IMG/VR virus record: IMGVR_UViG_3300012324_000010 | Source: a virus | Lineage: Duplodnaviria > Heunggongvirae > Uroviricota > Caudoviricetes | Reading direction: 5' to 3' (one strand) | Length of the DNA stretch: 64,000 nt | Shown here: in pieces, positions 2,831 to 39,238 of the stretch | Layout: every line of letters starts with the position of its first letter | Position numbering within the stretch: position 1 is the first letter of the stretch | The notes under the pieces: generated by a model | Told to the model about the DNA's origin: nothing | The model's database searches: none | The model's input: the letters and a program-made list of their open reading frames with translations, nothing else | Made by a program: the position numbers and the translations under genes

Positions 2831-3365
2831 GTTACTCACCAAAAAAGATATCCCCTCTGCGATCATTATCAGAGGGGATATCTTTGTGTGTAGTCCGCAG
2901 TTGTCGTTTTTGTTGATCAATCATAACCACTGTTGTCTACACTTCAAGATGAGTCAAGAGGTACTCACTAACGTATGCACAAAAACCCCAAGACCCACAC
3001 TGCGCATAACATTACAACTGTTGTCCCTGCATAAACTCTGGGTTAAAAACCAAAAAGTTGATCATTAAATAAGAACCAATCATCCCTGAAACTAAAGATT
3101 TTGGGGCTTTTTAGATGATTTTCTTGATAAACCTCAAGATTGAGTTGCTTAGTTGAGGTTTAATCTCACTTATAGGATAAGGATTTACTCCACAGACGGA
3201 TGCTAAATTGTCTACAAGGTGCATTGCTCATGCACTAACACGTACCTCTAGAAGGAGTTGCACCCTCACAAGCACCTTATAAGAGTGCTGTGTTAACCGT
3301 TACACCACAGAGTCTTAACTTCTACATGAAATCATTCTGGCAAATAATATGGTCTCATGTAGAGA

Positions 3366-3440
3366 GCGCCCCTGAGAGGATTCAAACCTCCAACCTTCCC
3401 TTTAGGAGAGGGGTGCTCCATCCCGTTGAGCTACGGGGGC
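3366..3440 (-). tRNA. tRNA-Arg (anticodon CCT, tentative)
   Basis: Cloverleaf on minus strand: acceptor gcccccg/cggggc, D-arm gctc..gagc, anticodon loop CTCCTAA, T-loop TTTGAAT; one acceptor mismatch. Confidence 0.75.
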
Positions 3441-3513
3441 TTGTATGACTAGATATCCACTGTGTCAACCACTATGGCTATCTAGTTGTTATGTGGAAGA
3501 TAATCACTTGCCA

Positions 3514-3589
3514 TGGTGCCCCCGGCAGGATTTGAACCCGCGACACATGGGGTAGAAACCCACTGCTCTATCCACTGAGCTACGGAGGC
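3514..3589 (-). tRNA. tRNA-Arg (anticodon TCT), CCA encoded
   Basis: Minus-strand cloverleaf gcctccgtagctcagtggatagagcagtgggtttctaccccatgtgtcgcgggttcaaatcctgccgggggcacca; anticodon loop TTTCTAC; GTTCAAATC T-loop; genomically encoded CCA. Confidence 0.85.
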
Positions 3590-4109: not shown

Positions 4110-5243
4110 ATGGCAACTCTTACTTTTGATGACTTGACATCCAAAGCACTCAAATGGGTGCTTTCTGGTGCAGACAACTCTGATTATGGACACTACATTA
4201 TAATCTCCATTGACAAGGATGGATTTACTAAACTTTCCACCAACACTCCTTTTGGACGCTCTTTGGAGATGCAGGCTGAAAACACTGAAGGTGAATACTC
4301 TGATGTAGCTTTTGCAGCTTCCACTCTTTCTGGTTTGGCTAAAAGTGTAGAAGAAGGAGATCAACTCACTTTAAACATTGACAATAAAAAAGATGTTGTC
4401 TACATCTCACTCGCTTCTACCACTATCACAGTAGATAACCTCTATGATGTATGTCCTGTGGTTGCCAGTTTGCGCGGAAAGACCACTCTGACCACCGTTG
4501 ATGCTAGTTCTGTAGCTCAGGCTTTGACTACTGCTACAAAGATGCTTCCCAAAAATGGTGATGTAGCTATTGATTGTGATAGTGATCGTTTGACTGTTTC
4601 TGCTATTTCTTCTGAACTAGTTTCTAGAGAAGAGTTCCCTTCTACTCTTCCCGAAGGTGAAGAGTCTCATATTCTTGTATCAGGAAAGAAGCTTTCTCCT
4701 CTTAATGCAGTAGTGCGCACTGGAATTGTAGAGGATATGAAGATTAAGGAAGAACGTGGTGTGGTAAGTTTTGTCTTCCCTATCCATGATGATTCCATTG
4801 GTATTGATGCTTTGTCCATGAATGTTTCTACCGCTGTAGAAAACTACAATGGTGAAGGAGGAGAGTTCCTTGATGATGAGGAAGATGAGATCGCTACCTT
4901 GTCTATTTCTGAAGTCAAAGAAGCTCTTGCTCCTTTGACTGCTGTTGTCTCTGATGCCAATGTCACCATTGATACTACAGGCGCTCATGGTGTATCTCTT
5001 ACTATTACCTCCAAAGGTACAGCTGCAAAAACCATTGTTCTAGATGCTGAAGTGGCTTCTGGCACTACCTATACAGTTTCTTTGTCAATGTTTATGGCTG
5101 CTTTGAAGAACATTTCTACTGCACAGGTTATTATCTCTTCCATTTCTGTTGATAATGAACCACTGTGGTATATCCTTACTCCAGATCATGGTGATGATGA
5201 CAACCCTGGTGAAGATCTCATTGTTGCTATTCCTCTTAGGTAG
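4110..5243 (+). CDS. DNA polymerase III beta sliding clamp-like protein (divergent DnaN homolog)
   Basis: 377 aa, SD AAAGGA; three-domain-length protein with DRLTVSA/TLTxxD type segments and a C-terminus ...LIVAIPLR resembling the DnaN ...VVMPMRL end. Weak similarity, pattern-based only. Confidence 0.5.
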   Translation: MATLTFDDLTSKALKWVLSGADNSDYGHYIIISIDKDGFTKLSTNTPFGRSLEMQAENTEGEYSDVAFAASTLSGLAKSVEEGDQLTLNIDNKKDVVYISLASTTITVDNLYDVCPVVASLRGKTTLTTVDASSVAQALTTATKMLPKNGDVAIDCDSDRLTVSAISSELVSREEFPSTLPEGEESHILVSGKKLSPLNAVVRTGIVEDMKIKEERGVVSFVFPIHDDSIGIDALSMNVSTAVENYNGEGGEFLDDEEDEIATLSISEVKEALAPLTAVVSDANVTIDTTGAHGVSLTITSKGTAAKTIVLDAEVASGTTYTVSLSMFMAALKNISTAQVIISSISVDNEPLWYILTPDHGDDDNPGEDLIVAIPLR

Positions 5244-5262
5244 CCTGAGGGATACTTGATAT

Positions 5263-5303
5263 TGCACCTTTTGCTTTTTTAAAGTTGAAAGGTGCATTTT
5301 TTG
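5263..5303 (+). terminator. intrinsic terminator after clamp-like gene
   Basis: Hairpin gcacctttt...aaaggtgc followed by T-run ATTTTTT. Confidence 0.6.
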
Positions 5304-5314
5304 TGTCCCTTTTA
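5297..5314 (+). repeat. polar intergenic motif TTTTTGTGTCCCTTTTAG (copy 1)
   Basis: See finding: one of at least 16 same-strand copies. Confidence 0.8.
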
Positions 5315-5653
5315 GACCTGTGTAGTGCATATGCAACACTTTGTGTTCCTTTTTGAAGATACCTGATGAAAGTTATTTCCAACAATAATCTTTTGATTTC
5401 TCCCTCAATAAGATCAAGGGGAGAATACAACTTTTTTACAGCATTATTACTGCCACATTTTTCAAGTTGGTTATTTATATTCGTGAATATAAATGCAATG
5501 TGCATGCTTTGACCTGCTGTTTTATAACCACTACCCCCATTTTCCACCCCCGTAGAAGTCAAAAAACTTGCGCTGTTCATCTTGCTGTGTCATACTAATA
5601 ACCACAAGGAAAAAACACACCATATCAACACTTCTTAAAGGAGAAAAAATATC

Positions 5654-8221
5654 ATGCGTTATAACACTGGCGTATCTACTATCAGCAATGCACAGTCTAA
5701 TCTTATGACTGTAGATCCTGACAAGGCTGCAAAGGTAGCAGCAATGCTTGTCAACAACTACACCTCCTATGTCACCCCTGTGCGAGAGGTGATCATCAAT
5801 GGTTTGGAAGCTGTTGAGGGTCAAGAAGATGGTCATGTCACAGTAGAGTTTGATGCTCAACAGGAAAAGGCTAGTGCTGTTTTCTCCAACTATGACATCA
5901 ATGGAGAGGGAGACTACATCATTCATATCACTGATAATGGCTGTGGTATGAGCCATGACTTTGCTAAGAACAAGTTTGTTCACCTGACTGCTTCCAGCAA
6001 GGATGACTCTGATGATTCTATTGGTGGCTTTGGTATTGGTGCTAAGGCTGTAGCTTCCATTTCTCACCACACTGTATTCCGCACTGTTCAAGATGGTGTT
6101 GCTACTGTCATTGTCTTTGGTATGTCTGACAAGGGTGCTACTACCTCTGTGAGTGATCCTATGGAAGTAGATGAACCTAATGGTACTAAGGTATCTATCC
6201 ATGTGGATCGGGATACTTTCTACAGTATTATCTCTGATATTGAGGATCAGTTCCTTGACTGGATTGATCCTGAGACTCCACTAACTGTTTCTTCTCCTGA
6301 AAGGGATTTTCAGGTAGGCAAGAAGTCTCAGGATACATTCCATTCTTATGCTCATAGCAATGGTGTTGTAGTTCACATGGTAAAGAACAATGATAAGGGT
6401 ATGTTTAGTTTTAATCCTGCTGACTCTATGCTTCGCTGTGTAGGAATGCCTTATCCTACTACTAACTCTATGAAAGATTCCTATGAGATTGGTACTTCTT
6501 TTGTCAGGGCTTTGAACGGTGTTATCCCAGGAGCGCAAGTAAGAAACAATAGTTTCTACCTCATCATTGATGTTCCACCACGTGATATCACTATTGACTC
6601 TAGCCGTGAGCGTGTAGCTGACACTGTGCATCTTCGCACTGTCATTGATGAAGCTATTGATGCTGCTGTAGAGGATTATGCTTATAGCATTGCACATAAC
6701 CTTAAAAACTCTAAGGATAGCCAGGAGTTTTTTGATAAGATCGCCCAAGGTTTTCCCTGTGTTGGACTCACCCTACGTAGTGGAGCATTGGGCAATGCTA
6801 ACTCCATTGTGGAAGATTACACTACTTATGTAGAAAAAGATAATGATCTTGAGGGCAAGGGCATCTTTATTATCAATGATGAAGATGATAAGTGCTACAA
6901 GAGTGGCAATCTGTATGAAATGGATAATGATTCCATTAGGTACATTCTTGATGCGTGGCGTGCAGAGTCTATTTCTCGTGTTTTTGCAAGCTCTGACAGT
7001 ATTGATGATGCTTTGGGTGTTGATACACACAAGTGCTCTTTTGTGGTAGTTGTTGATACCAAGAATGGTGGCTATACTACACAGATCAACGGTGGCGGTC
7101 TCTATGATAAGATTCTTCCAGATTCTTTCTTGAGTCTTTTTGATGACAAGGAAGACATTGATCTTACTATGGAACTTGTTAAGTGGCATCTTGGCATTGA
7201 TGCTTATACTGCGCCTAAGAGCTACCATGCTATCCGCAAGTCTATGATGACTCGTGGGCGTAGCAAGGGTAAGAATGGTTCCCATTCTAAGCGTGAGATC
7301 TTCTCCTATATTGACAACAATGGAAATCGCAAGATTGTCACTGCTGGTGATGCCAATGATATTCTTACCCAGTGGAAGAATGATAACATTTCTACCCTTG
7401 TTCTGCTTCAAGACAACAATGACAATACTGGTCTTGACTACTATCAAGAAACACTAAAAAACATTGACAAGGTTGTTCAAAAGGTCTATGGCACAGATCA
7501 CAAGGTAGTATTTGTTTCTGCTAAGCGTTGTGATACTGTGGCAAAGAATGTGCGCATCTTGAAAGAAAATGCTGACAAGGCAGTAATGGAAGTCAATGAA
7601 GATATCTTTGATGGTAAAGATGTCACAAACTCTATGTCTCATATCACCAAGGATATGTCTCAAGGAATGGGTTTCTTGTTCTTTGAAAGCTCTCTAGACA
7701 ACTTCTTTGGTGGGGAATATGTCAATAGTGGAATTGGATACAAGTGGCTAGATGCTGAATATGGCAATGGCACTATCCAGGATATTCTTGTTGATTACTT
7801 GAATCTAGATCCTGAAAAGTATCACAAGGCTAAGGAAAATATCATTGAAGCCATTAATGTTGTTTCTGATGATGAACCTCAATCTCCTGATGACACCTCT
7901 GTAGATTACTACCGTGCTATTACTGGAAGTGCTATTGTTTCTGCATTCCACAAATTCTACTACAGCCTTGGAAACAAGGACAAGACACTTGACACTGTAG
8001 GAAAGCTCTTTGCTGATGATGCAGATTACGATGAATACACCCGCCGAGTGCAAATCCTTTTTAACGTTGTAAACTATACTTGCAAAAACCATGTTGGATA
8101 CAGTGGTATTAGCAACAAGGAATCTGCTAAGTTTATGGGTAATACCATTGCTACTGCTCAGGAACTTGCAGACAATCCTGACTCTTTGGCAACTCAAATG
8201 ATGACAAATGGCTGGGTGTAA
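5654..8221 (+). CDS. GHKL (Bergerat-fold, MutL/MORC/Hsp90-type) ATPase domain protein, 855 aa
   Basis: Strong SD AAGGAG. N-terminal motifs EVIINGLEAV (N-box-like), HITDNGCGM (G1 box), IGGFGIGAKAVASIS (G2 box). The rest is acidic with no recognised Toprim or QTK motifs. Confidence 0.65.
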   Translation: MRYNTGVSTISNAQSNLMTVDPDKAAKVAAMLVNNYTSYVTPVREVIINGLEAVEGQEDGHVTVEFDAQQEKASAVFSNYDINGEGDYIIHITDNGCGMSHDFAKNKFVHLTASSKDDSDDSIGGFGIGAKAVASISHHTVFRTVQDGVATVIVFGMSDKGATTSVSDPMEVDEPNGTKVSIHVDRDTFYSIISDIEDQFLDWIDPETPLTVSSPERDFQVGKKSQDTFHSYAHSNGVVVHMVKNNDKGMFSFNPADSMLRCVGMPYPTTNSMKDSYEIGTSFVRALNGVIPGAQVRNNSFYLIIDVPPRDITIDSSRERVADTVHLRTVIDEAIDAAVEDYAYSIAHNLKNSKDSQEFFDKIAQGFPCVGLTLRSGALGNANSIVEDYTTYVEKDNDLEGKGIFIINDEDDKCYKSGNLYEMDNDSIRYILDAWRAESISRVFASSDSIDDALGVDTHKCSFVVVVDTKNGGYTTQINGGGLYDKILPDSFLSLFDDKEDIDLTMELVKWHLGIDAYTAPKSYHAIRKSMMTRGRSKGKNGSHSKREIFSYIDNNGNRKIVTAGDANDILTQWKNDNISTLVLLQDNNDNTGLDYYQETLKNIDKVVQKVYGTDHKVVFVSAKRCDTVAKNVRILKENADKAVMEVNEDIFDGKDVTNSMSHITKDMSQGMGFLFFESSLDNFFGGEYVNSGIGYKWLDAEYGNGTIQDILVDYLNLDPEKYHKAKENIIEAINVVSDDEPQSPDDTSVDYYRAITGSAIVSAFHKFYYSLGNKDKTLDTVGKLFADDADYDEYTRRVQILFNVVNYTCKNHVGYSGISNKESAKFMGNTIATAQELADNPDSLATQMMTNGWV

Positions 8222-8235
8222 CATTTAGTAAATAG

Positions 8236-8273
8236 AAAACCTCTCCCCTTAGTGGGAGTGGTTTTCATTTTTT
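8236..8273 (+). terminator. intrinsic terminator
   Basis: cctctccc cttagt gggagtgg hairpin followed by TTTTCATTTTTT. Confidence 0.6.
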
Positions 8274-8284
8274 ATTTTCAATGA

Positions 8285-8298
8285 TTTTGTGTCCCTTT
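8285..8298 (+). repeat. polar intergenic motif TTTTGTGTCCCTTT (copy 2)
   Basis: same family. Confidence 0.8.
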
Positions 8299-8453
8299 AG
8301 AAGTATTCTATCCTGCATACTAGACAACATTATTGCTGTATGATACAATTGCTCATGTAAGAAAAACACACCAGAAAATATCAAAAAATGTAGTATATAT
8401 ACTTGTCAGAACAATGACTGACTGATATACTATAAAGTACACACTAATCCTAT

Positions 8454-9299
8454 ATGAAAGGAATAAAGGCAATGGCTCAGCCACTATCTTTTACTATCAT
8501 TTCTCAAGATGACACTTCTATCCTCTCTTTTGTAGATATGACTACAGGACAGTCTGGAAATCTTCCACAGTGGTCTAGTCTTGATGAGAAATCACAAAAC
8601 ACCATCATGGATATTATTAAAGATCCAGAAAGTGTAGATGGTGATGCTATCAAGGCTATCTATGATGCAGCAAGCAACTATAACTCCAATGCTATTCAAG
8701 AGATCCGACGTAAGCTAGGTATCAAGGTAGGTCTTGACAATATCTACATTGGTTCTATTGTTTTGCCTAAGACTTTCCAAAAGCTACTGGGAAATGTTGA
8801 AACACTAGAAGAAGCACAAAGCATTGTTGCTTTTGCTAAGGATCTAGAAAATAATCCTGGTGAGCACTGCAAGGAAGCACTCATTGAGTGGTTAGTAGCT
8901 AATCCTAGCTTGTCTTTCGCACCAGATGGTCGCATCATTGGCTACCGTGCAGTTGATGACAAGTTCCTTTCCTATCACAGTGGTTATGGCATTGTCAATG
9001 GAGAAGAGTTTTCTAACTCTAAGCTAGATAACACTCCTGGAAATGTTTTGCAGTTCCCTCGTTTTATGGTAGATCAAAATACTGATAAGCATTGTTCTAT
9101 TGGTCTCCATGTGGGTACATGGAAGTATGCTTCTACATTTGGACATCAAAAGCACATTTCTGTTGCTTTCAAGGCTTCTGATGTAGTCTCACCACCATCT
9201 GATGCTTATCAGGAGAAGATCCGAGTTTCTGAGTTTACCGTTCTAGAAGAAATCACTGAACCCTACCATGACACCATTGTTGTAGGTAAAACCTACTAA
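8454..9299 (+). CDS. hypothetical protein
   Basis: 281-aa ORF directly downstream of GHKL gene; alternative start at ATG 8472. Confidence 0.55.
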   Translation: MKGIKAMAQPLSFTIISQDDTSILSFVDMTTGQSGNLPQWSSLDEKSQNTIMDIIKDPESVDGDAIKAIYDAASNYNSNAIQEIRRKLGIKVGLDNIYIGSIVLPKTFQKLLGNVETLEEAQSIVAFAKDLENNPGEHCKEALIEWLVANPSLSFAPDGRIIGYRAVDDKFLSYHSGYGIVNGEEFSNSKLDNTPGNVLQFPRFMVDQNTDKHCSIGLHVGTWKYASTFGHQKHISVAFKASDVVSPPSDAYQEKIRVSEFTVLEEITEPYHDTIVVGKTY

Positions 9300-9343
9300 T
9301 AAATCAAGCACCATCACTTTTTTAAGAAAGGACACTTTATACT

Positions 9344-10192
9344 ATGTCTAAGATCATTACCATTTTTTCTAATCCTGGAACCTATAGCTCTACGCTTCCA
9401 TCTTCTTCAGTATCTGACAAGGTAGAAGATAACAAAACTCTTACTGCTTTGGGTCATACTGTCGATGAAAAGAACTTTGCTAAGTCTCGTCATGTAGCAT
9501 CTCTTTTCAATGCTATTTCCCGTGGACGCAACGTTCATACCACAGCACAGCGCATTGGTCTTGTTTCTGATCATCCTGGCAAGGGTGACAATGATATTGA
9601 ATATCTATCAGAAGCCATGAAGAATATCTATGGCATTCATGGTGATAATGCCATTCTGGGTAGCATTGAGGTAACAGATGCACAAATGGAATACCTAGAA
9701 TCTAATCCAGCAGCTATGGAGGTATTCATTGATAATGCAACCATTCAGGCTGATAATCTTTCCTGGGATAAGGAAGATGTAGAGCACCGTGAGTCTTTGT
9801 GTGAAGAAGTTCACTCTTTTGCCAATGATGTCAATGATCTCATTGAACTAGCATCTCATGCAGAATATGAAGATGATGACTGGGGCAATGAAGATGACTG
9901 GGACAATGAAGATGATTGGGATGATGAAGATGATTGGGGTGACTGGGGTGTTGAAGATGACTGGGATGATGAAGATGACTACGGTGTAGAAGAAGATGAT
10001 GAAGTTTCTAGTGCTGGGGTCAACTCACCCTCACAGATCAAGGATGATGAATATATCAGCATTGATGATCTCAGCCCACATGCACAGCTTGTAGTGCTAA
10101 CCCCAGAAGAACTAGAGAAGCTGAAAAAGCACCCACGTTTTGCAAATGCAGAACAGCTAGAGCTTTCCTTTGATGATGTAGATGATGAATAA
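9344..10192 (+). CDS. acidic hypothetical protein with tandem EDDW(D/G)N repeats
   Basis: 282-aa ORF, SD AAAGGA; approx. 9871-9990 is an 18-bp tandem repeat encoding DDWGNEDDWDNEDDWDDEDDWGDWGVEDDWDDEDDY. Confidence 0.6.
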   Translation: MSKIITIFSNPGTYSSTLPSSSVSDKVEDNKTLTALGHTVDEKNFAKSRHVASLFNAISRGRNVHTTAQRIGLVSDHPGKGDNDIEYLSEAMKNIYGIHGDNAILGSIEVTDAQMEYLESNPAAMEVFIDNATIQADNLSWDKEDVEHRESLCEEVHSFANDVNDLIELASHAEYEDDDWGNEDDWDNEDDWDDEDDWGDWGVEDDWDDEDDYGVEEDDEVSSAGVNSPSQIKDDEYISIDDLSPHAQLVVLTPEELEKLKKHPRFANAEQLELSFDDVDDE

Positions 10193-10209
10193 TCTTTCTG
10201 TATCTTAAA

Positions 10210-11640
10210 ATTTCACCAAAACCACAAGTCAGAGAAGCCCCGGAATCTTTAGCTCCGGGGAGTGAATGGCTTAAAACTTTCACCCCTCTGGTCCACTTTT
10301 GACAAAGAGGTGAAGAGTATGATATACTTATCCATATCGCCCACAAGACAAAGAAGGGAGGGTTGAAGACATGGAGATAACCTTAACTAGGAAGATTTTA
10401 ATTGAGCCTAGTGAGGAGCAGGAGATACTGCTCAAGAGTACAGCTCAAGCATATACAGATGCCTGTAACTACATCTCAGCGTTCTGTTTCAGAGAGCATA
10501 CAACTTCAAAGAAGAATATTCAGGAATCTTTGTATTATGATCTCAGAGAGCACTTTAACCTCCCTAGTCAGATGGCGATTTCTGCGATTCGTTCAGTGGT
10601 ATCCGCATATGCTACTGTTCACGCAACACAGAAAAGGTGGTCTGTACAACCTGCTTTTAAGAAGCAAAAGTACAATCTTACCTGGAACAGAGACTATTCT
10701 CTCAACAGAAAAACTGGTGATTTTAGCCTCAATACCCTAGATGGTAGGCAGCACATTAAAACCCAGTGGAAGGGACAAGAAAAGTATTCTAGCTTGGAGA
10801 AATACGGCACAGCCACCATTGCTTTTAAGCATGGAAAATGGTTTGCACATATACCCGTATCTATCACTGTGGACGAGTTGAGTCTTGATGATGTGGTAGA
10901 TATTATGGGAATTGACTTGGGTGTAAACTTTCTGGCGACTGCTTACAGCTCCACCACAGGAAAAACACAGTTCTTCAGTGGAAAGCACATCAAGCACAAG
11001 CGAGCACAGTATAATAATCTGCGTTCTGAGCTGCAAAGAAAAGGTACCCGATCTTCAAGAAAACGACTTAAGGCTATTGGTAATCGAGAAAACCGTTGGA
11101 TGAGTGATATCAATCACACCATCACTAAGGCACTCGTGAATACTACCAATCCCACCTTGTTTGTTTTGGAAGATTTAAGCGGTATCCGCTCAGCTACAGA
11201 AAAGGTTCGCACAAAAGATCGCTATGTGCAAGTATCATGGGCATTTTATGATTTCAGAAAGAAGCTAGAATATAAAGCTCAGCTACATGGGCATAAGGTT
11301 CTTATTGTAGATCCTCGGTACACTTCTCAAATGTGTCCTAAATGCGGTTATACACATAAGAAAAACCGCAATAAGAAAACACACACTTTCTGCTGCACAA
11401 AGTGTGGTTATTGTTCCAACGATGATAGAATAGCAGCAATGAATCTGTGTGCAAAGGGAATTCAGTACCGTGCACAGTTCGCTATGAGCAAAGCTCCTAG
11501 CGAAGGGGAAAGTCATCATCCCCACGATGTTCCGACAGCATCTTAGTATGTTAAAAAGGCAGGAGAGATAATCATTCTCGATTACTGCTGGTCAGGGACA
11601 AGCCCTGGAGTCTTTAGCTCTGGGGTAGATGACCCCTTGT
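10210..11640 (+). mobile_element. IS200/IS605-family insertion sequence carrying only tnpB (IS1341-like); boundaries approximate
   Basis: Left-end hairpin ccccggAATCTTTAGCTccgggg at 10238-10260 and near-identical right-end hairpin ccctggAGTCTTTAGCTctgggg at 11603-11625 flank a single TnpB ORF. No tnpA present. Confidence 0.8.
10371..11546 (+). CDS. tnpB: RNA-guided endonuclease TnpB (IS605 OrfB family transposase-associated protein)
   Basis: 391 aa; RuvC-I motif GIDLGVNF, RuvC-II LFVLEDL region, C-terminal zinc finger CPKCGYTHKKNRNKKTHTFCCTKCGYCSNDDRIAAMNL; typical length and architecture. Confidence 0.9.
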   Translation: MEITLTRKILIEPSEEQEILLKSTAQAYTDACNYISAFCFREHTTSKKNIQESLYYDLREHFNLPSQMAISAIRSVVSAYATVHATQKRWSVQPAFKKQKYNLTWNRDYSLNRKTGDFSLNTLDGRQHIKTQWKGQEKYSSLEKYGTATIAFKHGKWFAHIPVSITVDELSLDDVVDIMGIDLGVNFLATAYSSTTGKTQFFSGKHIKHKRAQYNNLRSELQRKGTRSSRKRLKAIGNRENRWMSDINHTITKALVNTTNPTLFVLEDLSGIRSATEKVRTKDRYVQVSWAFYDFRKKLEYKAQLHGHKVLIVDPRYTSQMCPKCGYTHKKNRNKKTHTFCCTKCGYCSNDDRIAAMNLCAKGIQYRAQFAMSKAPSEGESHHPHDVPTAS

Positions 11641-11668
11641 GTGTTATATATACAAGGGATATTTTTTG
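11633..11668 (+). terminator. hairpin plus T-run at IS right boundary
   Basis: ccccttgtgtgttatatatacaagggat then ATTTTTT. Confidence 0.5.
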
Positions 11669-11676
11669 AATCATTT

Positions 11677-11696
11677 ATTTTTTGTGTCCCTTTTTG
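11677..11696 (+). repeat. polar intergenic motif TTTTTTGTGTCCCTTTTT (copy 3)
   Basis: same family. Confidence 0.8.
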
Positions 11697-12106
11697 CCTA
11701 TCAAGATGACACTCTAAAATGTAAAAATAAATGACAACTAATAATGCCACTCGTTTTTTGCTAAGCTCTTCAAACGCTCAACAAAAGGAGTATAAGGTCT
11801 AGGCTCACGGGATTCCAATTCACCTAGTATGTCACTATCAACCACAGTAACGCTGTCTGCTATAGCTTTGTTTCTAGAACATTCTTGGCATTGTCTTATA
11901 TGTTCATCATGCTCATCCATCAATAATCACTTACCTTTCAAAATATCTTCATCAATAGCTTAGTTGCTACAAGATTAAGTTCCTGTTCTTTCATCTATAT
12001 TGATAGTAGATTTCAGTATAACATCAAAAGGATATGTAGTCATTTCATTGTTGATAGAATGATCCACATATCTTAAAAATCATCAAAAAGAAGAGGTAAG
12101 TTCTCT

Positions 12107-13900
12107 ATGGCAAGAAAAAAGACACGCAAATCACCCGCTAGGCGCTCACGTAAGCGTTCAACATCTTCTAAGAAGTCAACTACCCTCAATAGCTCACAAA
12201 AGTCCTTAAAACAGCGTCAGAAGGCTCCTTGGGATAGGTTGAAATTAGCAGGATATGACAATCCTATTATCTATCAATTCCCCTGGGAGGATAGGGCGTT
12301 ATCTAAAGTAGCACAAGCTGAATACTTTCCTGGTATTGGGTATGTATCTTTAAAAGAAAATCCTCTCTTTGAAGATTACAGGGTAAAAAACTACTCTTGG
12401 GAAAAATTCGTAGAAGATAAAACTAGCAATACAACATCTACTCCTTTCCTAGAGGGAGAAAGCCCTTATGTTTTAAGAGAAGATCAAAAAGAAGATGTTG
12501 CAACTATTATGCAAGCCTATAATGCTGGCTCTCCTGAATTCTTGATTGCTAATGCTACTGGTACGGGAAAAACAGTTACCACTCTTGCAGCATTAGATGA
12601 ACTTTCCCCTCACAGTGTTCTTATAGTGTGTCCTGCAGCAGTCATTCCTGTATGGAGAAGACATATTGAAGATATGGGTGATAAGGGAAGGAAATATGTT
12701 GTCATCAACTATGAATCCTTAAAGAAACTTGTGTCCCCTCCTGATGAAGCAGTTAAAGCTAAAAAGGCAGCAACTCAAAATAAACACATTTCTCTATCAG
12801 GAAAACCCTATACATATTTTGATGCAGTTGTTATTGATGAAGCGCACAAGACTAAAAACCCCACTGCACAACAATCACGCATATGCTCTATGATCTCTGC
12901 ACATGCACGCTTTACTCTAAGGCTAACAGCTACCCCTGGAAAAAATCCTTCACAGCTTCATTACTTATATAGACTTTTATCTTTTAATACTGGAGACAGC
13001 ATTGAAGTAAAAGATGATAAAGATTTCTCCCGCTATATTTCCTGGTGTAAAAAGCATCATGTTGATGGCATTGTCTCTGCTCCTTTTGGAAATGGTATTA
13101 CCTTTGAAGGCGGTAGCGATTCTGTAAGAGCTATGGAAAAAATACTCTATGGAAAAACTACCCACGGTGTTACAACAGCCATAAAGAAGAAACCACACAA
13201 TTGGGATAAAGTAATAAGACAACCCTACCCTATTGACATTTCTGCACAAGAAAAACAGGACTATCAACTTCTAGTGGAAGATGTAAAAAACATTATGCTC
13301 AATGCTGGAAAATCTAGAAGAATGGATATGTCTAAAGGTATTGCTGCAATGATGAAGATGCGTCAAAAAGCTGGTCTTTTAAAAGCATCACATATTGCTG
13401 ATTATGCACAGTATTGTGTTCAAGATCTAGGAGAACAAGTAGTCATATCTACTGTATTTCACAACACTGCAGAAGTTATTGAAGAAAAACTCCACTCCTT
13501 AAAAATTGATTGTGTGACAATCACAGGAAAAGACTCTGCTGAAGACAAAGAAGATAAAAGACTAGCCTTCCAACAAGGCAAGGTTCCTGTGGTGATTACC
13601 TCTATTACTACAGGTATTTCTTTACACAGTAATGAAGAATCAGTAGGAGGAAACTCTACTCCTCGCAGACTCATTGTAGGAGATATTCACTTTTCTCCTA
13701 TTGAACATACACAACTAGAGGGAAGGATCAACAGGAATGGAGAAAACGGGATTGTAGTCATTCCCATGCTTGCTGATACAGTAGATGAGAAAGTTGTATC
13801 TACTTTGCTTCATGGTGTAGAAACTCAATCTATTTTGCAATCAAATGGTGATGAAGATGATATTGCTTTTTTGGCTGATGCTTTAGGAGTTAAGCTATAG
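12107..13900 (+). CDS. SNF2/Rad54-family DEAH-box helicase with basic N-terminal tail
   Basis: 597 aa; motif I ANATGTGKT, motif II VIDEAHKTKN, motif III LTATPGKN, C-terminal motif VI QLEGRINRNGE; N-terminus is K/R/S-rich. Confidence 0.85.
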   Translation: MARKKTRKSPARRSRKRSTSSKKSTTLNSSQKSLKQRQKAPWDRLKLAGYDNPIIYQFPWEDRALSKVAQAEYFPGIGYVSLKENPLFEDYRVKNYSWEKFVEDKTSNTTSTPFLEGESPYVLREDQKEDVATIMQAYNAGSPEFLIANATGTGKTVTTLAALDELSPHSVLIVCPAAVIPVWRRHIEDMGDKGRKYVVINYESLKKLVSPPDEAVKAKKAATQNKHISLSGKPYTYFDAVVIDEAHKTKNPTAQQSRICSMISAHARFTLRLTATPGKNPSQLHYLYRLLSFNTGDSIEVKDDKDFSRYISWCKKHHVDGIVSAPFGNGITFEGGSDSVRAMEKILYGKTTHGVTTAIKKKPHNWDKVIRQPYPIDISAQEKQDYQLLVEDVKNIMLNAGKSRRMDMSKGIAAMMKMRQKAGLLKASHIADYAQYCVQDLGEQVVISTVFHNTAEVIEEKLHSLKIDCVTITGKDSAEDKEDKRLAFQQGKVPVVITSITTGISLHSNEESVGGNSTPRRLIVGDIHFSPIEHTQLEGRINRNGENGIVVIPMLADTVDEKVVSTLLHGVETQSILQSNGDEDDIAFLADALGVKL

Positions 13901-13996
13901 ATTATTGCTGATTTAGCATATATAACTATATTATGATATAGTTTTCAACTATGAACATTTGCACATATCTTTTGTCACGAAGAGAAGAGGAAAAAC

Positions 13997-14380
13997 ATGG
14001 CAAAAACTTACCAAACTCATATCATGTGGTCAGGTCACGGAGATGACATCTACAATCAACCTGTCAGTCTTTTAGCTTCTGGAGAAGACAATGCACGAGA
14101 GATGTTTAGCAACATTGTCTCTGAAGGTCTTGCTATTAAAAATGATGGTCTTTTCCTAGCGGCTGTTTCACCAGAGATGACTGAGGAAGAAATCAACACC
14201 TACTCTGGTGACAAGGAAGCACTATGTGCAATCATCAAGGGTGAGGATGAAAAGTTCTCCCTTGGATCACTGATTAAAGAATATGCTACCAGCAATGATG
14301 ATTGGGCAGAAGGATCTTTGACTGTTGTCTATGATAATGATGAAACTGATGCTGATGTTACTATGACTAACCGTGGATAG
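13997..14380 (+). CDS. acidic hypothetical protein
   Basis: 127-aa ORF with SD GAGGAA; followed by strong terminator. Confidence 0.6.
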   Translation: MAKTYQTHIMWSGHGDDIYNQPVSLLASGEDNAREMFSNIVSEGLAIKNDGLFLAAVSPEMTEEEINTYSGDKEALCAIIKGEDEKFSLGSLIKEYATSNDDWAEGSLTVVYDNDETDADVTMTNRG

Positions 14381-14465: not shown

Positions 14466-15761
14466 TTACTTGCTATCTACTTTTTCAGTAGGATTTTCTT
14501 CTTGAAACTCTACACTATCTTTTTGGCTATTATCTTGAAGTGGTTGAGCACCAGCTTTCTCCATAGCCTTCTGGTAAGACTTTGCAGCTTTTTCTTTCTG
14601 CTTTCTTCTTTCACGAAGTTGCTGGGTAGATTGAGATTCATCTGTTTCCTGATAACGGAATTGAGGAACAACCCAACCACGGTTTTGAGGGCTAGAAGAA
14701 CCTCCTACACCCTTCTTTTTGTTGGTATTAGCAAAACGAGCCTTAGTCAAGGAACGTCCTACCTGTGCAATAGTTCCAGCAAAGTTAACCCTTTGATCAT
14801 CAGGAAGATTTTTAGCATTATTAGCAATCATTCCACGGCGAGTGGTAGCAGCATGAAGAGAATCAAATTCACCCAACTTGACAGTGACATCTTTACCTCT
14901 GGTATTGGTAAGCATATGTCCTAGTTCTTGAGTGTTTTTATCCACTGGAGAAGCATCCTCAAAAGAGGTTGCTACAGTGGTGCGCATGGATACTACATAT
15001 TTACCATCTTTATTTTCAGTAACATGCATATCATGGCGTCCCTCAACTACAGAACCATCTGGCATGGAAAGACGAGTCATCTTAGTCAAGCTGTCAGCAG
15101 CTTTAGTACCAATTTCTTCCCCATCAATCTTTTTTGGAGGTCTAGTTGACTCCTCTTTTCTCCATGCAGAATCTGCACCAGTTTCTACCCATGTAGATGC
15201 ACGCTGTAGCTGTTCATCACTAAGATCATCAAGTTCTACTTTTTGAGGTTTTCCTGTAGTGTAGTCAATCCCTGATTTGTTGCGTTGTGCTCTAGGAGAA
15301 AACTCTGCACCACGGTTGATTGCTTCTTGTCTAAGGATTGGTCTTTCACTAATAAACTCATGATAGTCCTTATAGGAATCATCCCTTCTAGCAATACCTT
15401 CTTTCAAGAGCTTATCATAACGCTCAATCTTGCCTTGCTTTTCCTCCCACAATCTTAGAGCACCTTGTTTGGAAGGAGAAGGTTTGCGTTTAGGCAAAGA
15501 GTCTTGCACCTCTTTAATCTGCTCTGCAAGGTACTCTTGTCCAGCTGGAGTAGCATAAAACACACGGTTTGCCTGCTCCATGCGAAGTTCAGCATTATGT
15601 AGACTTTTAGCTACCTTTTCTGGCATAGGATTGTCATTGCCACCATCTTCAAAAGGTTGTGCTTGTGCTTGTGCCTTTTGAAGATTTTTCCTTGCTGCTG
15701 CATGACGTTTCCTACCGCTATTAGAACACCGTGGGCCTGGTCTTGCTCTACACATGTTCAT
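14466..15761 (-). CDS. hypothetical protein (431 aa; basic N-terminal and charged C-terminal regions)
   Basis: Long uninterrupted minus-strand ORF with SD AGAGGGA; no recognised motif. Confidence 0.65.
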   Translation of the reverse strand: MNMCRARPGPRCSNSGRKRHAAARKNLQKAQAQAQPFEDGGNDNPMPEKVAKSLHNAELRMEQANRVFYATPAGQEYLAEQIKEVQDSLPKRKPSPSKQGALRLWEEKQGKIERYDKLLKEGIARRDDSYKDYHEFISERPILRQEAINRGAEFSPRAQRNKSGIDYTTGKPQKVELDDLSDEQLQRASTWVETGADSAWRKEESTRPPKKIDGEEIGTKAADSLTKMTRLSMPDGSVVEGRHDMHVTENKDGKYVVSMRTTVATSFEDASPVDKNTQELGHMLTNTRGKDVTVKLGEFDSLHAATTRRGMIANNAKNLPDDQRVNFAGTIAQVGRSLTKARFANTNKKKGVGGSSSPQNRGWVVPQFRYQETDESQSTQQLRERRKQKEKAAKSYQKAMEKAGAQPLQDNSQKDSVEFQEENPTEKVDSK

Positions 15762-17494: not shown

Positions 17495-18211
17495 TTATAC
17501 ACTCAAAGCACGGTGTCCTGAAATGCATCCAGTCTTTCCTGTATCAAACTTAGAACCATCAGCATAACCTGCATTATAAGAGTTCCTATCTACAGAAGAT
17601 CCAGAAGAAGTCTTAAGCTTTCCCTTGCAATCACCCATAGCATATTCTTTAGCCTTTTCCTGATCATTGATAATGGATACTACACCATCACCATTATCAC
17701 TGCGAGCTTCAGCTTCATGTCCTCGAAGAGAATCCTTAATAGCAGAAGCATAACCTACCATGTGGGAAAGACGCTTTTTGCGAACCCCATATACTCCAGA
17801 AGGAATAGCTTTCATGGCAGAATCAACCATGGTCAAAGACGCTACAGAAAACAACATCTTCACACGCTCACGATCAATATCTCGACCATAAATATCCACA
17901 GTATTAACAGCCTTCCCTGGAATATTACTTCCCACTGCATAGCAACCTAGAGCATGAGCAATGACTGTTACTAGAATGTGCTGTTGCTTCTTATAAGGAA
18001 TAGTTGAATCAAAGACAATGCTATCTTTACCCATTTCATTATTGTTATGTGCATTGTGATCATGAACATCATTTTCTTCAATGCCATATTGAGCCATAAG
18101 CTTCATGGCACGAGATAGAGCTGCATCTCCCTCTGCTGTTCCTTGCTGATCATTAGCAAGGTTAAGAAGCTTAGAAATCTTTGCAGTAATAGTAGCACTC
18201 TTATGAGACAA
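17495..18211 (-). CDS. DUF2786-like (phage-associated) protein
   Basis: N-terminus KISKLLNLANDQQGTAEGDAALSRAMKLMAQYGI matches the K(I/V)xKLLALA...NExEAxxAL..AQ.LM signature of DUF2786. Confidence 0.5.
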   Translation of the reverse strand: MSHKSATITAKISKLLNLANDQQGTAEGDAALSRAMKLMAQYGIEENDVHDHNAHNNNEMGKDSIVFDSTIPYKKQQHILVTVIAHALGCYAVGSNIPGKAVNTVDIYGRDIDRERVKMLFSVASLTMVDSAMKAIPSGVYGVRKKRLSHMVGYASAIKDSLRGHEAEARSDNGDGVVSIINDQEKAKEYAMGDCKGKLKTSSGSSVDRNSYNAGYADGSKFDTGKTGCISGHRALSV

Positions 18212-18486
18212 GATATTCTCCTTGATATGGATGGTGTTTTTCTTTGATGTAGTTTCTACTATATACCACTGTGTTTTTCTTGTCTATCTATATCCCTCAT
18301 ATGTGGGTGGATAGGTAGCATGAATATAACTATTGACAAATATCAATCATTATGATAGAGTTGTAAGCAACTGCATTGGTTGATCAATAGCAGGAATATA
18401 TGTTTTTTCTTTGACATTTTTTCAAAGAAATGGTGGAGCTAAAAAAGACACAGGAAAAATCCTGTGTCTTTTTCTATTTATCTTTC

Positions 18487-18735
18487 TCAATGAGAAACAT
18501 CATCAGGTTGAGGGGTTTGTGAAACCCCTACATCACGAGAATAAGTATTGTGATCACTGTGGCGGGTAGGTCCAGCAAAAATAACAGCCATTAATACAAT
18601 TACAAGAATAGCGCAAGATAATACTAAAGATACAGCAAAATCCTGAGCATTATTTTCTTGTGGAGTTCTGTTTTCCCTATAATACATGTCTTGATAGTCT
18701 TTAATGCTTTGAGAACTGTCAGTATAAGTGCTCAT
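18487..18735 (-). CDS. small membrane protein
   Basis: 82 aa with one central TM helix. Confidence 0.5.
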   Translation of the reverse strand: MSTYTDSSQSIKDYQDMYYRENRTPQENNAQDFAVSLVLSCAILVIVLMAVIFAGPTRHSDHNTYSRDVGVSQTPQPDDVSH

Positions 18736-18802
18736 GATAAATGTTCCTTCACAGTTGATATTTTCTTTTTGACAACCATTATAGTTGCTTCAACTTCTTT
18801 AA

Positions 18803-19069
18803 TCAAGGAGTATTTTCTTCAGAAGTACTTTCTGGTTCTACCACTTTATCATTCATAGGATTAATGATTTTTCCTTCACTGTTTCTGATAGTGTTGCCTG
18901 GTCCAATATTATAGTCTGTGGTTTCCTCTTCTATAGGAGAGCTGTCATTGAAATTTGTTTCAAAAGTAACAGATGTTGTTTCTTTATCTCCCTCTACATC
19001 AGAACACGCACTAAGGATAATAGAGCTTATAATGATTGCAGCTGTTGCGCATTGTGACTTTGTAGACAT
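18803..19069 (-). CDS. small lipoprotein
   Basis: Signal peptide ending in lipobox LSAC. Confidence 0.55.
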   Translation of the reverse strand: MSTKSQCATAAIIISSIILSACSDVEGDKETTSVTFETNFNDSSPIEEETTDYNIGPGNTIRNSEGKIINPMNDKVVEPESTSEENTP

Positions 19070-19142
19070 GTTTTTTATTCCCTTTGGATTTTATGTATTT
19101 GTACCATTTTAACATAGAAAACATGTCTAATCATTTGATATA

Positions 19143-19159
19143 TTTGTGTCCCTTTTTAT
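19143..19159 (+). repeat. polar intergenic motif TTTGTGTCCCTTTTTAT (copy 6)
   Basis: same family. Confidence 0.8.
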
Positions 19160-19305
19160 CAAAAGAAGAATGGAATGTGAGAAATGCAGTATAGAGCACC
19201 AATACCAGTACTACAATTCCTCCTCCTCTACCACTATAATGCTCTATAAGGAAGAGCAAAAGAGCACATGTGCAAAACACACATGTGCTCAACAGCATTA
19301 TCTTT

Positions 19306-19524
19306 CTAGTTATCAAAGAAATATCCCTTGATGACATCATAGACATACCAGTATCCTACAAGAGGAATAAGCCCTGCAATATTTTCTAGATACACAGTGC
19401 CATAATAAGCTATGACACCAGGAGTGATAAGAAGAATAGCCAAGGCAACAAACACTGCAATGTTAAATGCATATTGAGATGCCTTATGTTGGATATTCTT
19501 TTCAGAATGGGTAAAAGTAGTCAT
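19306..19524 (-). CDS. small membrane protein
   Basis: 72 aa, two hydrophobic helices. Confidence 0.45.
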   Translation of the reverse strand: MTTFTHSEKNIQHKASQYAFNIAVFVALAILLITPGVIAYYGTVYLENIAGLIPLVGYWYVYDVIKGYFFDN

Positions 19525-27253: not shown

Positions 27254-27925
27254 ATGACAACAACGTTTCTTATTGCTCAAATCCTAGGATTTTGCGCTGC
27301 TAGTGCAGCATGTATGCAGCACCCATCTCATGTGATTTACCTTTGGGGGCATAGAAAAGATGTTTCTATTCTTAAAGGTTTATCTCTGTTATCTATCCTT
27401 TTTACCACTGCAAACTCTATTGCATGGGGTGTATATGGATTGATGTATAAAGCTTATCCTACAGCACTTATTGCAGTATCAGGAACCATTGTCATGGCTA
27501 TCACAGTAGGAATCCTAGTCAAAGCGCGCATGTGGAAGATTCCTGCACTGATAGGATATATCCTTTTTATCTTGCTGTTGATATTTTTGTCCCTTATAGC
27601 ACCACAGGATCAACTAGGTTTTTGGGGAAATATGATTTCTATTGGAATGTGGATTCCAGCTGCATTAAAAGTTATTAAAGTCAGAAACACACCAGCAGCT
27701 TTATCTTATCCTCCTGTAACATCCTGGACAATCATCATCACCAATATTCTATGGATATCCTATGGTGTTCTTTTACAAGATATATGGCTATGGCTTTCTG
27801 CACCTTTTTCTATCACATGTGCTCTCATGATGCTATGGGCATATCACAGCACAAAGAAACACCTTGATGGTCACGCAACCCATATCATAGAAGAAGATTA
27901 CTCTTTCACTTCTGAAAACTCATAA
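27254..27925 (+). CDS. 7-TM membrane protein with internal 3-TM duplication (PQ-loop/SWEET- or PnuC-like, tentative)
   Basis: 223 aa; two halves each carry the TN..W..YG....P pattern. Confidence 0.35.
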   Translation: MTTTFLIAQILGFCAASAACMQHPSHVIYLWGHRKDVSILKGLSLLSILFTTANSIAWGVYGLMYKAYPTALIAVSGTIVMAITVGILVKARMWKIPALIGYILFILLLIFLSLIAPQDQLGFWGNMISIGMWIPAALKVIKVRNTPAALSYPPVTSWTIIITNILWISYGVLLQDIWLWLSAPFSITCALMMLWAYHSTKKHLDGHATHIIEEDYSFTSENS

Positions 27926-28414: not shown

Positions 28415-30145
28415 TTACAGTATAATCAACCAACGCTTTTTCCCATAATCCCACACCTTATCCAACTCATTAAGCTCAGCAAGTTGAGACTCAGTAAGAC
28501 CATCTATATATTTCAAAGTGGGATCTTGTCTAAACCTAGAAATCCTATAGTTAAACTTATGCTTTCTTTCCATGCCAACTTTGTAGTAGTAATCTGGAAG
28601 AAGATCACCATCAAATGTAAATCCAAGAGTTTTATATAAGCTTCCATCAGAAACTGAATTGTCAGAAAATGTCACAATCTTTTCCAAACCATATTCTCTT
28701 GCGTAAGACATACCCTTTTTAAGAAGCTTTCCCATGCCACCTACAACCACACAAGAGGTTGCATACCTGTCTAGGTAGAGGGTGTTTTTATTCTTTCTCC
28801 AAGAAGACACAGCAACTAGATCACTATCTTGATCATAGAGACCAATATATTTACTTCCCTTTGAGCTTCCCTGAATATGGTATTCATCTAGGAAATCTCG
28901 TGCTGTAGCAAAATCCACAAAATCAAGAGTGGTATTTCTAGCATAAACTTTTCTATCTTGAGATACCCCAAGTTTATGAGAAATCATAGACTCTACTACT
29001 TTTCTTCTTTGCATCCAGTCATCTTCCCATACCACAATCAACTGAATTCCCTTATCTGCACAAATCTTCCACTTGGTAATGTGCTTATCTTTGGTTCTTC
29101 CTACCTTTTCACTGTGCCAATAAAGACCATTGAACTCAATAGCAATGGAAAGTTCTGGAATATAAATATCTAGCTCATGAGTTCTCAAAGCAGATCTATT
29201 GGAAGTTTTCACCTCTATTTCTTGAGGAAGTATAGATTTTACAAAATCAGCAACTTCAGTTTCCATGGTGGATACTTTCTTGCAGCAATGAGGACATCCA
29301 CTACCTCTTGTTCTATCACTTACAAGAGATTTCCAACTGTGACCATTGCCACATAGCCACCATACTTTCTTGGTTGAACTAGCAGGTACATCCTGTGGTG
29401 TAAGAGGAAGATTTTTGCTTGCATCCCATTCTTTAGATAGATCTGGAAAAAGAGTAGCAATATCATTGTCTCCAGATAGTACCTTTTGACCTGCGCATAT
29501 TGGACATCCACTTTTGTTCATGGATCTGTGATAAATGGAAGCTTTGTAACTATGATTTTTCTTTGGACATAACCACCATACTTTTTTACGAGATCCATAG
29601 CTATAAGATGTAGGTGGTAGGTCATTTTTATCACAATCCCATTCTTTTATAAGCTCAGGGAAACGTGTTTCAAGATCTGTTTCTCCTATAATCACCTTGT
29701 TTCCAGAACAATAAGGACATCCTGTTCCACCTGAAACACGTGAATTAATTTTGGTTTCCCACTCATGACCTTTATCACATATCCACCATGCTTTCTTTCC
29801 AGAATTTTGCATTACTTCCTGAGGACTAATCACATTCTTTTGGTGATTCCATTCCTTTGCAATATCAGGATGAATATGTGCAAAGTCATTAAATCCTTGC
29901 AAAACCTTTCTCCCTGCACAATAAGGGCATCCTCTTCCATGCACCCTGCTTTTAATAACAGCAGCCCAACTATGACCTTTATCACATTTCCACCATGCCT
30001 TCTTATGTGATCCAGGAAGTACTTGTTCAGGAGGAATGGTATTTTTATCCTCATCCCATTGTTGAGCAAGTCCAGGGTGTAAATAGACAAGGTTGTTTTT
30101 GCTTGTTACACTCCTGCTTGGTTTAGAAATGATATCATTTTCCAT
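28415..30145 (-). CDS. protein with four tandem zinc-ribbon repeats plus a Vsr/DUF559-like PD-(D/E)xK nuclease-fold domain and an unassigned C-terminal domain
   Basis: Four repeats of W(W)xCxxGHxWxxxxxxRxxGxGCPYCxGxKVxxGxNDxxxxxPxLxKEW; then ELDIYIPELSIAIEFNGLYWHSE...IQLIVVWEDDW. Confidence 0.6.
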   Translation of the reverse strand: MENDIISKPSRSVTSKNNLVYLHPGLAQQWDEDKNTIPPEQVLPGSHKKAWWKCDKGHSWAAVIKSRVHGRGCPYCAGRKVLQGFNDFAHIHPDIAKEWNHQKNVISPQEVMQNSGKKAWWICDKGHEWETKINSRVSGGTGCPYCSGNKVIIGETDLETRFPELIKEWDCDKNDLPPTSYSYGSRKKVWWLCPKKNHSYKASIYHRSMNKSGCPICAGQKVLSGDNDIATLFPDLSKEWDASKNLPLTPQDVPASSTKKVWWLCGNGHSWKSLVSDRTRGSGCPHCCKKVSTMETEVADFVKSILPQEIEVKTSNRSALRTHELDIYIPELSIAIEFNGLYWHSEKVGRTKDKHITKWKICADKGIQLIVVWEDDWMQRRKVVESMISHKLGVSQDRKVYARNTTLDFVDFATARDFLDEYHIQGSSKGSKYIGLYDQDSDLVAVSSWRKNKNTLYLDRYATSCVVVGGMGKLLKKGMSYAREYGLEKIVTFSDNSVSDGSLYKTLGFTFDGDLLPDYYYKVGMERKHKFNYRISRFRQDPTLKYIDGLTESQLAELNELDKVWDYGKKRWLIIL

Positions 30146-32528: not shown

Positions 32529-32776
32529 TGTTTTCCTTTCTTTTGTGATATATTTTTCATCAGTTGAATACATAGTACTGGATATAGATTAAAAGATCAA
32601 CAAAAACACATAAAAGCATAATGAGTAGTAATGTGGTATTATATGCTTAAAGACTTATATGTGATTGTAATCACATATACAATATGGTCTTGTTTTTCAG
32701 TATAATAACAACCTAGATATAATAAACCTTAGAAAAAACCATTGAATAAATAGCACTTGCAGAAAGGGATACACCT

Positions 32777-39054: not shown

Positions 39055-39238
39055 TTTCTCCTTTTATTACATGATATATATTGTGCTTGTTGATATTACA
39101 AAATCAATAGTACCTGATACTACTTATAAATGCAAGATTGTTCTACTTTTGCATAAAAAGTAAAACAGGCTGTGAGCTTGTTATTATAATATATGACCTT
39201 TTCACATTGTAAAAAAAAGATTGGATACTGAAACACCC

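Follow-up and report, generated by a model that had tools for sequence, protein, structure and literature searches.

A divergent rIIA/rIIB locus, a predicted DnaN-type sliding clamp and a TnpB insertion in an early-type gene region of a probable uncultivated huge phage

Introduction

The rII locus of phage T4 consists of two adjacent genes of an early-type region, in the order rIIA then rIIB, whose products shield the phage from the early lysis that a prophage induces (Rex exclusion). The rIIA protein has been described as an N-terminal GHKL domain followed by a variable C-terminus, with a poorly understood role in counter-defense (PMC7824862). RIIB is needed against RexAB and also triggers a gasdermin defense system (PMC10312443). 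A divergent rIIA/rIIB pair is described here in a stretch of viral DNA of 64,000 nucleotides (nt) from the IMG/VR virus record IMGVR_UViG_3300012324_000010, hereafter "the window". It lies at positions 4110-14380, in a block of seven plus-strand genes that also encode a predicted DnaN-type sliding clamp, an SNF2-family helicase, a TnpB protein, and two acidic proteins.

The block probably belongs to the non-structural genes (of early or DNA-metabolism type) of a huge phage that has not been cultivated, and several independent functions are co-directional in it by chance. A preliminary description, made from the sequence alone, had presented it as an operon-like array and proposed either a replication module or a defense or anti-defense cassette. 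The seven plus-strand open reading frames (ORFs) that it had listed are present, as are the motifs that it had quoted, and conserved homologs of every ORF in related metagenomic contigs indicate that all seven are real genes. rIIA/rIIB pairs, DnaN-type clamps and SNF2 helicases of phages, and TnpB elements had all been described before, and the region contains highly divergent members of each; nothing in it is categorically new. The results bear on folds, on matches to families, on synteny, and on the insertion; the biochemical activities given below are all inferred.

A Probable Huge-Phage Lineage

The genes of the block are found again on metagenomic contigs of 249, 311, 337, 364, and 379 kilobases (kb). 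At the nucleotide level, megablast of the region yields no match in GenBank phages or in PLSDB plasmids, and scans with the clamp retrieve no relatives from IMG/VR or from 185,579 GTDB genomes. The window contains eight dispersed tRNA genes. Several of its proteins match PHROG families only, and most of the remaining ORFs are orphans. Taken together, the tRNAs, a homing endonuclease (see below), the PHROG families, the 249-379 kb contigs, and the rII genes point to huge (jumbo) phages of a lineage that has not been cultivated. As for the host, strong AAAGGAG-type ribosome-binding sites and a protein with a RibLong domain hint at a Gram-positive bacterium; a scan of GTDB genomes with TnpB, meant to infer the host, gave no match.

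The rIIA/rIIB Pair

The gene at positions 5654-8221 (plus strand) encodes an rIIA homolog of 855 amino acids (aa), composed of an N-terminal GHKL ATPase and a long variable C-terminal region. It matches the "RIIA" family PHROG 612 with an expect value (E) of 1.3e-22, residues 92-673 aligning with profile positions 81-604 of 725, and the Pfam model HATPase_c (2.7e-6). The GHKL boxes N (E45/N49), G1 (D94xGxG98), and G2 (G124GxGxG129) are invariant in 10 rIIA homologs, with the motifs HITDNGCGM and GGFGIGAK located at residues 91-99 and 124-131. This GHKL N-terminus had been correctly recognized in the preliminary description, where it was taken for the sole recognizable part of the protein; the PHROG 612 match extends well past it. 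By BLASTP, the protein also aligns over 355 aa (2e-9) with gp244 of Microbacterium phage A3Wally, the product of the gene just 5' of rIIB, and a tblastn search of phages returned nothing at 1e-5.

The GHKL domain is nearest to those of Topo VI-B and MutL. Identity with GyrB, which had been doubted from the outset, or with MutL is rejected: the resemblance covers the ATPase core only, without the Toprim or transducer domain of GyrB or the C-terminal dimerization domain of MutL, at scores far under the cut-offs, the Topo VI-B model giving 29.8 bits for a cut-off of 274 bits and MutL in the PDB being matched at E 0.022 over residues 73-155.

The gene at 8454-9299 (plus strand), one of the "two unknowns" of the preliminary description, is the rIIB homolog. 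Its true start is probably at 8472, which leaves 275 of the 281 aa, as called in the relative L013. The 281-aa protein matches PHROG 609 ("RIIB", 3e-31), and PF26926 (Phage_T4_rIIB) is flagged on the identical gene of L013. A tblastn search matched 2,432 phage records. Among the matches listed, all named genes are rIIB, the remainder being unannotated or "hypothetical", and the best are those of actinophages, with 31% identity at 95% query coverage.

rIIB begins 232-250 nt 3' of rIIA, and the same order is found in the relatives L010, L011, and L013, in A3Wally, in Rhodococcus phage NiceHouse, and in T4. In both A3Wally and NiceHouse, a gene for a protein of 650-730 aa is followed directly by rIIB. 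The 855-aa GHKL protein and its neighbor are thus a classic phage rIIA/rIIB pair, and what looked like an enigmatic cassette of a GHKL protein and unknowns becomes a recognizable rIIA/rIIB locus, in a huge-phage lineage that is absent from GenBank phage records.

The resemblance to T4 rests on several features: the adjacency and order of the two genes, the N-terminal GHKL ATPase of rIIA with a common G2 box (GGFG[IL]G[AS]K), the C-terminal domain of rIIB (29% identity over 164 aa by BLASTP, E 8e-21), and the location in an early-type region, with topoisomerase-type genes nearby in the relatives of the window. In contrast, the rIIA of the window is 130 aa longer than that of T4 and its C-terminal region is not pairwise alignable, its rIIB is nearest to actinophage proteins, and a clade-specific acidic repeat gene follows rIIB. 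By analogy with T4, the rIIA ATPase and its small partner rIIB would act jointly and early in infection, shielding the phage against RexAB and other systems of abortive infection or exclusion.

Upstream of rIIA, alignment with L010, L011, and L002 delineates a conserved region (5463-5653, plus strand) that resembles a promoter and contains a strong Shine-Dalgarno sequence. L010 and L011 display TTGAC-N17-CATACT; the version in the window is degenerate (TTGCG-N17-CATACT) and is followed by AAAGGAGA before the ATG. Within this region, a non-coding block of 65 nt (5463-5527) shares 85% identity with L010 despite diverged flanks. TTGCAT and elements similar to TTGAC are present in the block, which could serve as a promoter or operator.

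The Acidic Companion of rIIB

Only 44 nt separate rIIB from the gene of an acidic protein (9344-10192, plus strand; 282 aa; isoelectric point (pI) 4.05), whose position after rIIB is kept in every relative examined (L010, L011, L002, and L013). Its homologs, 214-296 aa long, are confined to this phage clade. They share an invariant N-terminal MSKIITIF and a conserved part of ~170 aa, followed by a repeat rich in D, E, W, and Y that varies in length; the EDDW region, noticed in the preliminary description, corresponds to an 18-nt tandem DNA repeat at 9875-9997. This second "unknown" has no family match in Pfam, PADLOC, NCBIfam, or PHROG, and a poor AlphaFold2 model (predicted local distance difference test (pLDDT) 57) that finds no match in a fold search. 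The protein is a lineage-specific companion of rIIB. A CARD-only type anti-defense protein is encoded adjacent to rIIAB in Acinetobacter phage 133, and the acidic protein might conceivably be of that kind. Divergent rII loci with such companions are candidates for comparative study.

The Predicted Sliding Clamp

Phage DnaN-type clamps, as those of phages PaBG, Motura, and phages of Gordonia and Nodularia, display three domains in ~365-380 aa. The first gene of the block (4110-5243, plus strand) encodes a 377-aa protein of pI 4.24 that is, according to its predicted structure, a divergent member of this kind, i.e., a three-domain DnaN-type (beta) clamp fold. The AlphaFold2 model, built with 16 homologs, reaches a pLDDT of 84.5 and a predicted template modeling (TM) score of 0.82, and shows three beta-alpha-beta repeats with exactly six helices. 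In a Foldseek comparison with the PDB, the best 50 matches are all bacterial DnaN beta clamps, aligned over the full length of the model (E ~1e-17, TM scores 0.70-0.74) at 11-15% identity. Among the viral models of BFVD, the top matches are phage DnaN-type clamps from Pseudomonas phage PaBG, Achromobacter phage Motura, and Nodularia, Gordonia, and Arthrobacter phages (TM scores 0.72-0.74 for the phage clamps named above), and two-domain clamps of the PCNA type score below them. The helices, defined by predicted secondary structure only, account for 19% of the protein length yet hold 9 of its 25 lysine and arginine residues, and only 3 of its 59 aspartate and glutamate residues, a concentration of basic residues expected for a DNA-facing channel.

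Sequence comparison gives far weaker signals. The protein itself has no match in Pfam, NCBIfam, PHROG, or PADLOC, nor in the PDB by phmmer, although one family member matches PF02768 at 7e-7. A profile of the family ranks DnaN first in the PDB, weakly (E 0.005 and 0.012), and an hhalign comparison of the family with Escherichia coli DnaN is not significant (probability 5%). A profile search of 1.84 billion representatives delineates a family of 25 proteins, with no ordinary DnaN among them.

The call of a divergent beta clamp in the preliminary description stands, since the three-domain DnaN-type fold was found. Its likening of the C-terminal VAIPLR to the MPMRL of DnaN is abandoned as a family feature: IPLR occurs in the closest relatives only. 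Compared with the phage DnaN-type clamps, that of the window shares the fold and differs by its low identity (11-15%), by belonging to a separate small family that the Pfam DNA_pol3_beta models and PHROGs miss, and by a conserved acidic loop that precedes the last strand. With the bacterial DnaN, the beta subunit of Pol III, it shares the fold, the number of domains, and a weak in-register sequence signal; it differs by residing in a phage genome, away from any dnaA/recF/gyrB context, and by the lack of conservation of the C-terminal pocket residues. As the preliminary description had noted, this is not the canonical dnaA-dnaN-recF-gyrB locus; the setting is that of a phage. A very divergent and rare family of DnaN-fold phage clamps, missed by current sequence profiles, is useful for the annotation of huge phages.

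Gene Order and Linkage

The order clamp, small ORF, rIIA, rIIB, acidic protein, SNF2 helicase, and 127-aa protein (the last two are described below) is kept in L010 and L011, whose rIIA proteins are ~45% identical to that of the window. Two genes upstream, both also encode a type II topoisomerase A subunit. Successive genes of the block are separated by 410, 232, 44, 178, 560, and 96 nt, and hairpins followed by T-runs, resembling terminators, are present 3' of rIIA and of TnpB. In L002, a minus-strand TnpB element occupies the spacer between the clamp and rIIA genes. Clamp homologs at 45-48% identity, found in L004 (on the 249-kb contig) and L006, have different neighbors and no rII genes nearby; the comparison of neighborhoods suggested in the preliminary description therefore upholds the gene order in L010 and L011 and fails to extend it to these two. 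The linkage between clamp and rII genes is confined to the closest clade.

The intergenic gaps, the promoter-like region 5' of rIIA, the terminator-like hairpins, the TnpB element in the L002 spacer, and the unlinked distant clamps together argue that the block is not an operon-like system, contrary to the preliminary description. It is concluded to be a run of co-directional genes in an early-type phage region, with at least three independent functions, in which the clamp and the SNF2 helicase are of replication type and rIIA/rIIB are counter-defense genes. The two roles first proposed for the block as a whole, in replication and in defense or anti-defense, thus each fit different genes, the former the clamp and the helicase and the latter rIIA/rIIB, and neither a single module nor a defense island is retained.

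It has to be weighed against this conclusion whether the genes form one replication-linked module, in which the rIIA ATPase, with its N-terminus similar to MutL and Topo VI-B, rIIB, and the acidic protein work on DNA with the clamp and the SNF2 helicase. Besides this similarity, such a module would account for the order conserved down to 45% rIIA identity and for the topoisomerase A subunit just upstream, rIIA of T4 also being adjacent to topoisomerase genes. It would further give a role to the hexapeptide QLELSF (10156-10173, residues 271-276) of the 282-aa acidic protein, which would dock on the clamp. It is located 6 residues from the C-terminus and resembles the hexapeptides that bind beta clamps; no other credible gene of the window has the pattern Q[LMV]x[LM]x[FL] close to its C-terminal end. 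However, the C-terminal QLE[LI]SF is found in closer relatives only, QLELSF being conserved in orthologs of at least 70% identity, and it is missing from the L011-type orthologs (P0082 and P0085) despite the ~70% identical clamp of their phages; QLELSF is, therefore, treated as a lead only. Moreover, rIIA has a promoter-like region of its own, the distant clamps of L004 and L006 lack rII neighbors, and rIIB is found in 2,432 phages with no reported linkage to a clamp, its neighbors having been checked in A3Wally and NiceHouse only. A single module is hence unlikely. That the conserved order, QLELSF, and the upstream topoisomerase subunit reflect a physical link between rII and the replisome, rIIA being a clamp-associated GHKL DNA ATPase in the manner of MutL, is distinctly improbable; if true, it would for the first time give mechanistic access to what the rII proteins do, a question 70 years old.

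Several observations nevertheless weigh against independent functions in the early-type region of a huge phage. The preservation of gene order at 45% rIIA identity may reflect some functional coupling, and scans for promoters and terminators show no enrichment over shuffled sequences. Pairwise alignment with T4 rIIA is restricted to the G2 motif (1e-4). Within the 64 kb of the window, neither a polymerase nor a clamp loader is found, nor are structural or packaging genes, and the phage assignment rests on the rII genes, the tRNAs, the PHROG matches, and the contig sizes.

Possible Roles of the Clamp

Within the replication-type reading, two copies of the clamp would associate head-to-tail into a ring that keeps a polymerase, of the phage or of the host, or other DNA enzymes attached to DNA. 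Clamps serve other ends as well. T4 gp45 is a clamp that serves late transcription. Phage Mu also uses a clamp for late transcription (PMC12867686). The clamp fold of the window might accordingly have another purpose, as a transcription co-activator like gp45 or as a decoy that sequesters the clamp-binding proteins of the host. The extreme divergence and rarity of the family (25 representatives), the strong acidity of the protein, the unconserved C-terminal pocket residues, and the lack of a polymerase or clamp loader nearby would all suit such a role. On the other hand, all three domains are retained, each with its two helices, the basic residues cluster in the helices, and the closest structures are all those of replicative clamps, so that a purpose other than replication appears highly improbable.

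The SNF2 Helicase and Its Neighbors

The gene at 12107-13900 (plus strand) encodes a phage helicase of the SNF2 family and DEAH type, 597 aa long, whose N-terminus forms a basic tail. It belongs to PHROG 62 ("DNA helicase", 1.8e-50) and matches the Pfam models SNF2-rel_dom (5e-15) and ResIII (5.5e-16). A GTGKT motif is present at residue 152. As reported in the preliminary description, a DEAH motif (residue 244) is also present and the N-terminus is highly basic, with 17 lysines or arginines among the first 45 residues. A tblastn search retrieves 44 phage records at 22-27% identity. The protein shares with the phage SNF2/Swi2 helicases of PHROG 62 the SNF2 ATPase core and its DEAH motif, and is distinguished from them by the basic tail and by a conserved downstream partner.

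This partner, already noted as a small acidic protein, is 127 aa long with a pI of 4.09 (13997-14380, plus strand). It is always located just 3' of the SNF2 gene, as observed in L010, L011, and L013, and has no match in Pfam, PADLOC, NCBIfam, or PHROG. Together, the helicase and its 127-aa partner would act in fork remodeling or in recombination-dependent replication.

An SNF2 helicase close to a MORC- or GHKL-type ATPase also recalls bacterial or plasmid defense islands such as DISARM, Zorya, or Dpd-type systems, and PADLOC does give weak partial matches, restricted to the helicase core, of the SNF2 protein to DpdE, PbeA, DrmD, and ZorD (E 1e-9 to 1e-12) and a marginal match of the GHKL protein to TmtA (0.0077). 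A defense island is nonetheless rejected as extremely improbable, because the PADLOC and NCBIfam family scores are far under their cut-offs (38.9 bits vs. 610 for DrmD, 16.3 vs. 1500 for ZorD, 15.8 vs. 500 for DpdE); furthermore, the window SNF2 lacks the nuclease or methylase domain fused in ZorD, DrmD, and DpdE, the partner genes of DISARM, Zorya, and Dpd are not found in the Pfam and PADLOC scans, the GHKL protein fits phage rIIA much better and its gene precedes a genuine rIIB, no match exists in plasmids or GTDB genomes, and the contig is rich in tRNAs and exceeds 300 kb.

Between the insertion element and the SNF2 gene, the minus strand (11738-11923) contains a small ORF of 61 aa that includes the motif QCQEC. 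At this position, L002 has a minus-strand gene of 60 aa and L011 one of 110 aa.

The TnpB Element

IS200/IS605 elements carrying only TnpB are characterized by an OrfB_IS605 protein with a zinc-ribbon TNB domain and RuvC, and by left and right ends that contain hairpins. The element at 10232-11625 (plus strand), with tnpB at 10371-11546, is of this type and devoid of TnpA. Its protein matches NF040570 (2e-58), PF07282 (2e-21), and PF01385. Direct repeats of 29 nt at its ends (10232-10260 and 11597-11625) are 86% identical, and each contains an imperfect palindrome, as in IS200/IS605 ends; the core motif of these ends occurs twice in the window, both times at the ends, vs. 0 expected. Compared with the described elements, it lacks TnpA, has no Rfam match to an omega-RNA family (an Rfam scan of the window detects tRNAs only), and resides in a phage replicon.

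The element has inserted between the acidic gene and the SNF2 gene. TnpB is absent from this site in both L010 and L011, the acidic gene of L010 being followed by 154 nt and then by SNF2, which confirms the tnpB insertion proposed in the preliminary description. TnpB elements are thus seen actively reshaping huge-phage genomes. This lineage of phages has many of them, and they are polymorphic, with positions that vary between genomes 96% identical. L002 contains three TnpB-type genes in 21 kb (5120-6343, 11273-12553, and 18133-19308), one of them beside a resolvase-type gene, as in IS607-like elements.

Neighboring Genes of the Window

The tRNA genes of the window (3242-3589 (-), 21233, 51523, 55171 (-), 63486, 63709 (+)) are of rare-codon kinds, typical of large phages. 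Just 5' of the clamp gene, three of them, Ile(TAT), Arg(CCT), and Arg(TCT), form a cluster; the window has one more Arg(CCT). At the other end, a basic protein of 431 aa (14466-15761, minus strand; pI 9.4) converges on the block; orthologs of it (415-429 aa) are found at the corresponding place in L010, L011, and L013, and family searches with it gave no match.

A further mobile element is represented by a 576-aa HNH homing endonuclease (28415-30145, minus strand), which matches PHROG 559 and 3339 at ~1e-87. Membrane-related accessory genes encode an O-antigen acetylase of a phage family (24336-26573, minus strand), a SWEET/MtN3-like transporter (27254-27925, plus strand), an SPFH/flotillin protein (31410-32573, minus strand), and an MscS-type mechanosensitive channel (57743-58627, plus strand). 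This set is of note beside rII genes, which are linked to membrane integrity, and NiceHouse has a Band-7 gene near its rIIB.

The RibLong protein mentioned above (39221-41752, plus strand; 843 aa) carries PF18957 (Long Rib), which is found in surface proteins of Gram-positive bacteria and is a possible clue to the host; in L011, the gene of another RibLong protein is inserted between those of the clamp and rIIA. Finally, three trypsin-like serine protease paralogs stand in tandem on the minus strand (34441-35724, 35896-37185, and 37269-38651), and the relative L004 (249 kb) harbors two similar serine protease genes near its clamp homolog.

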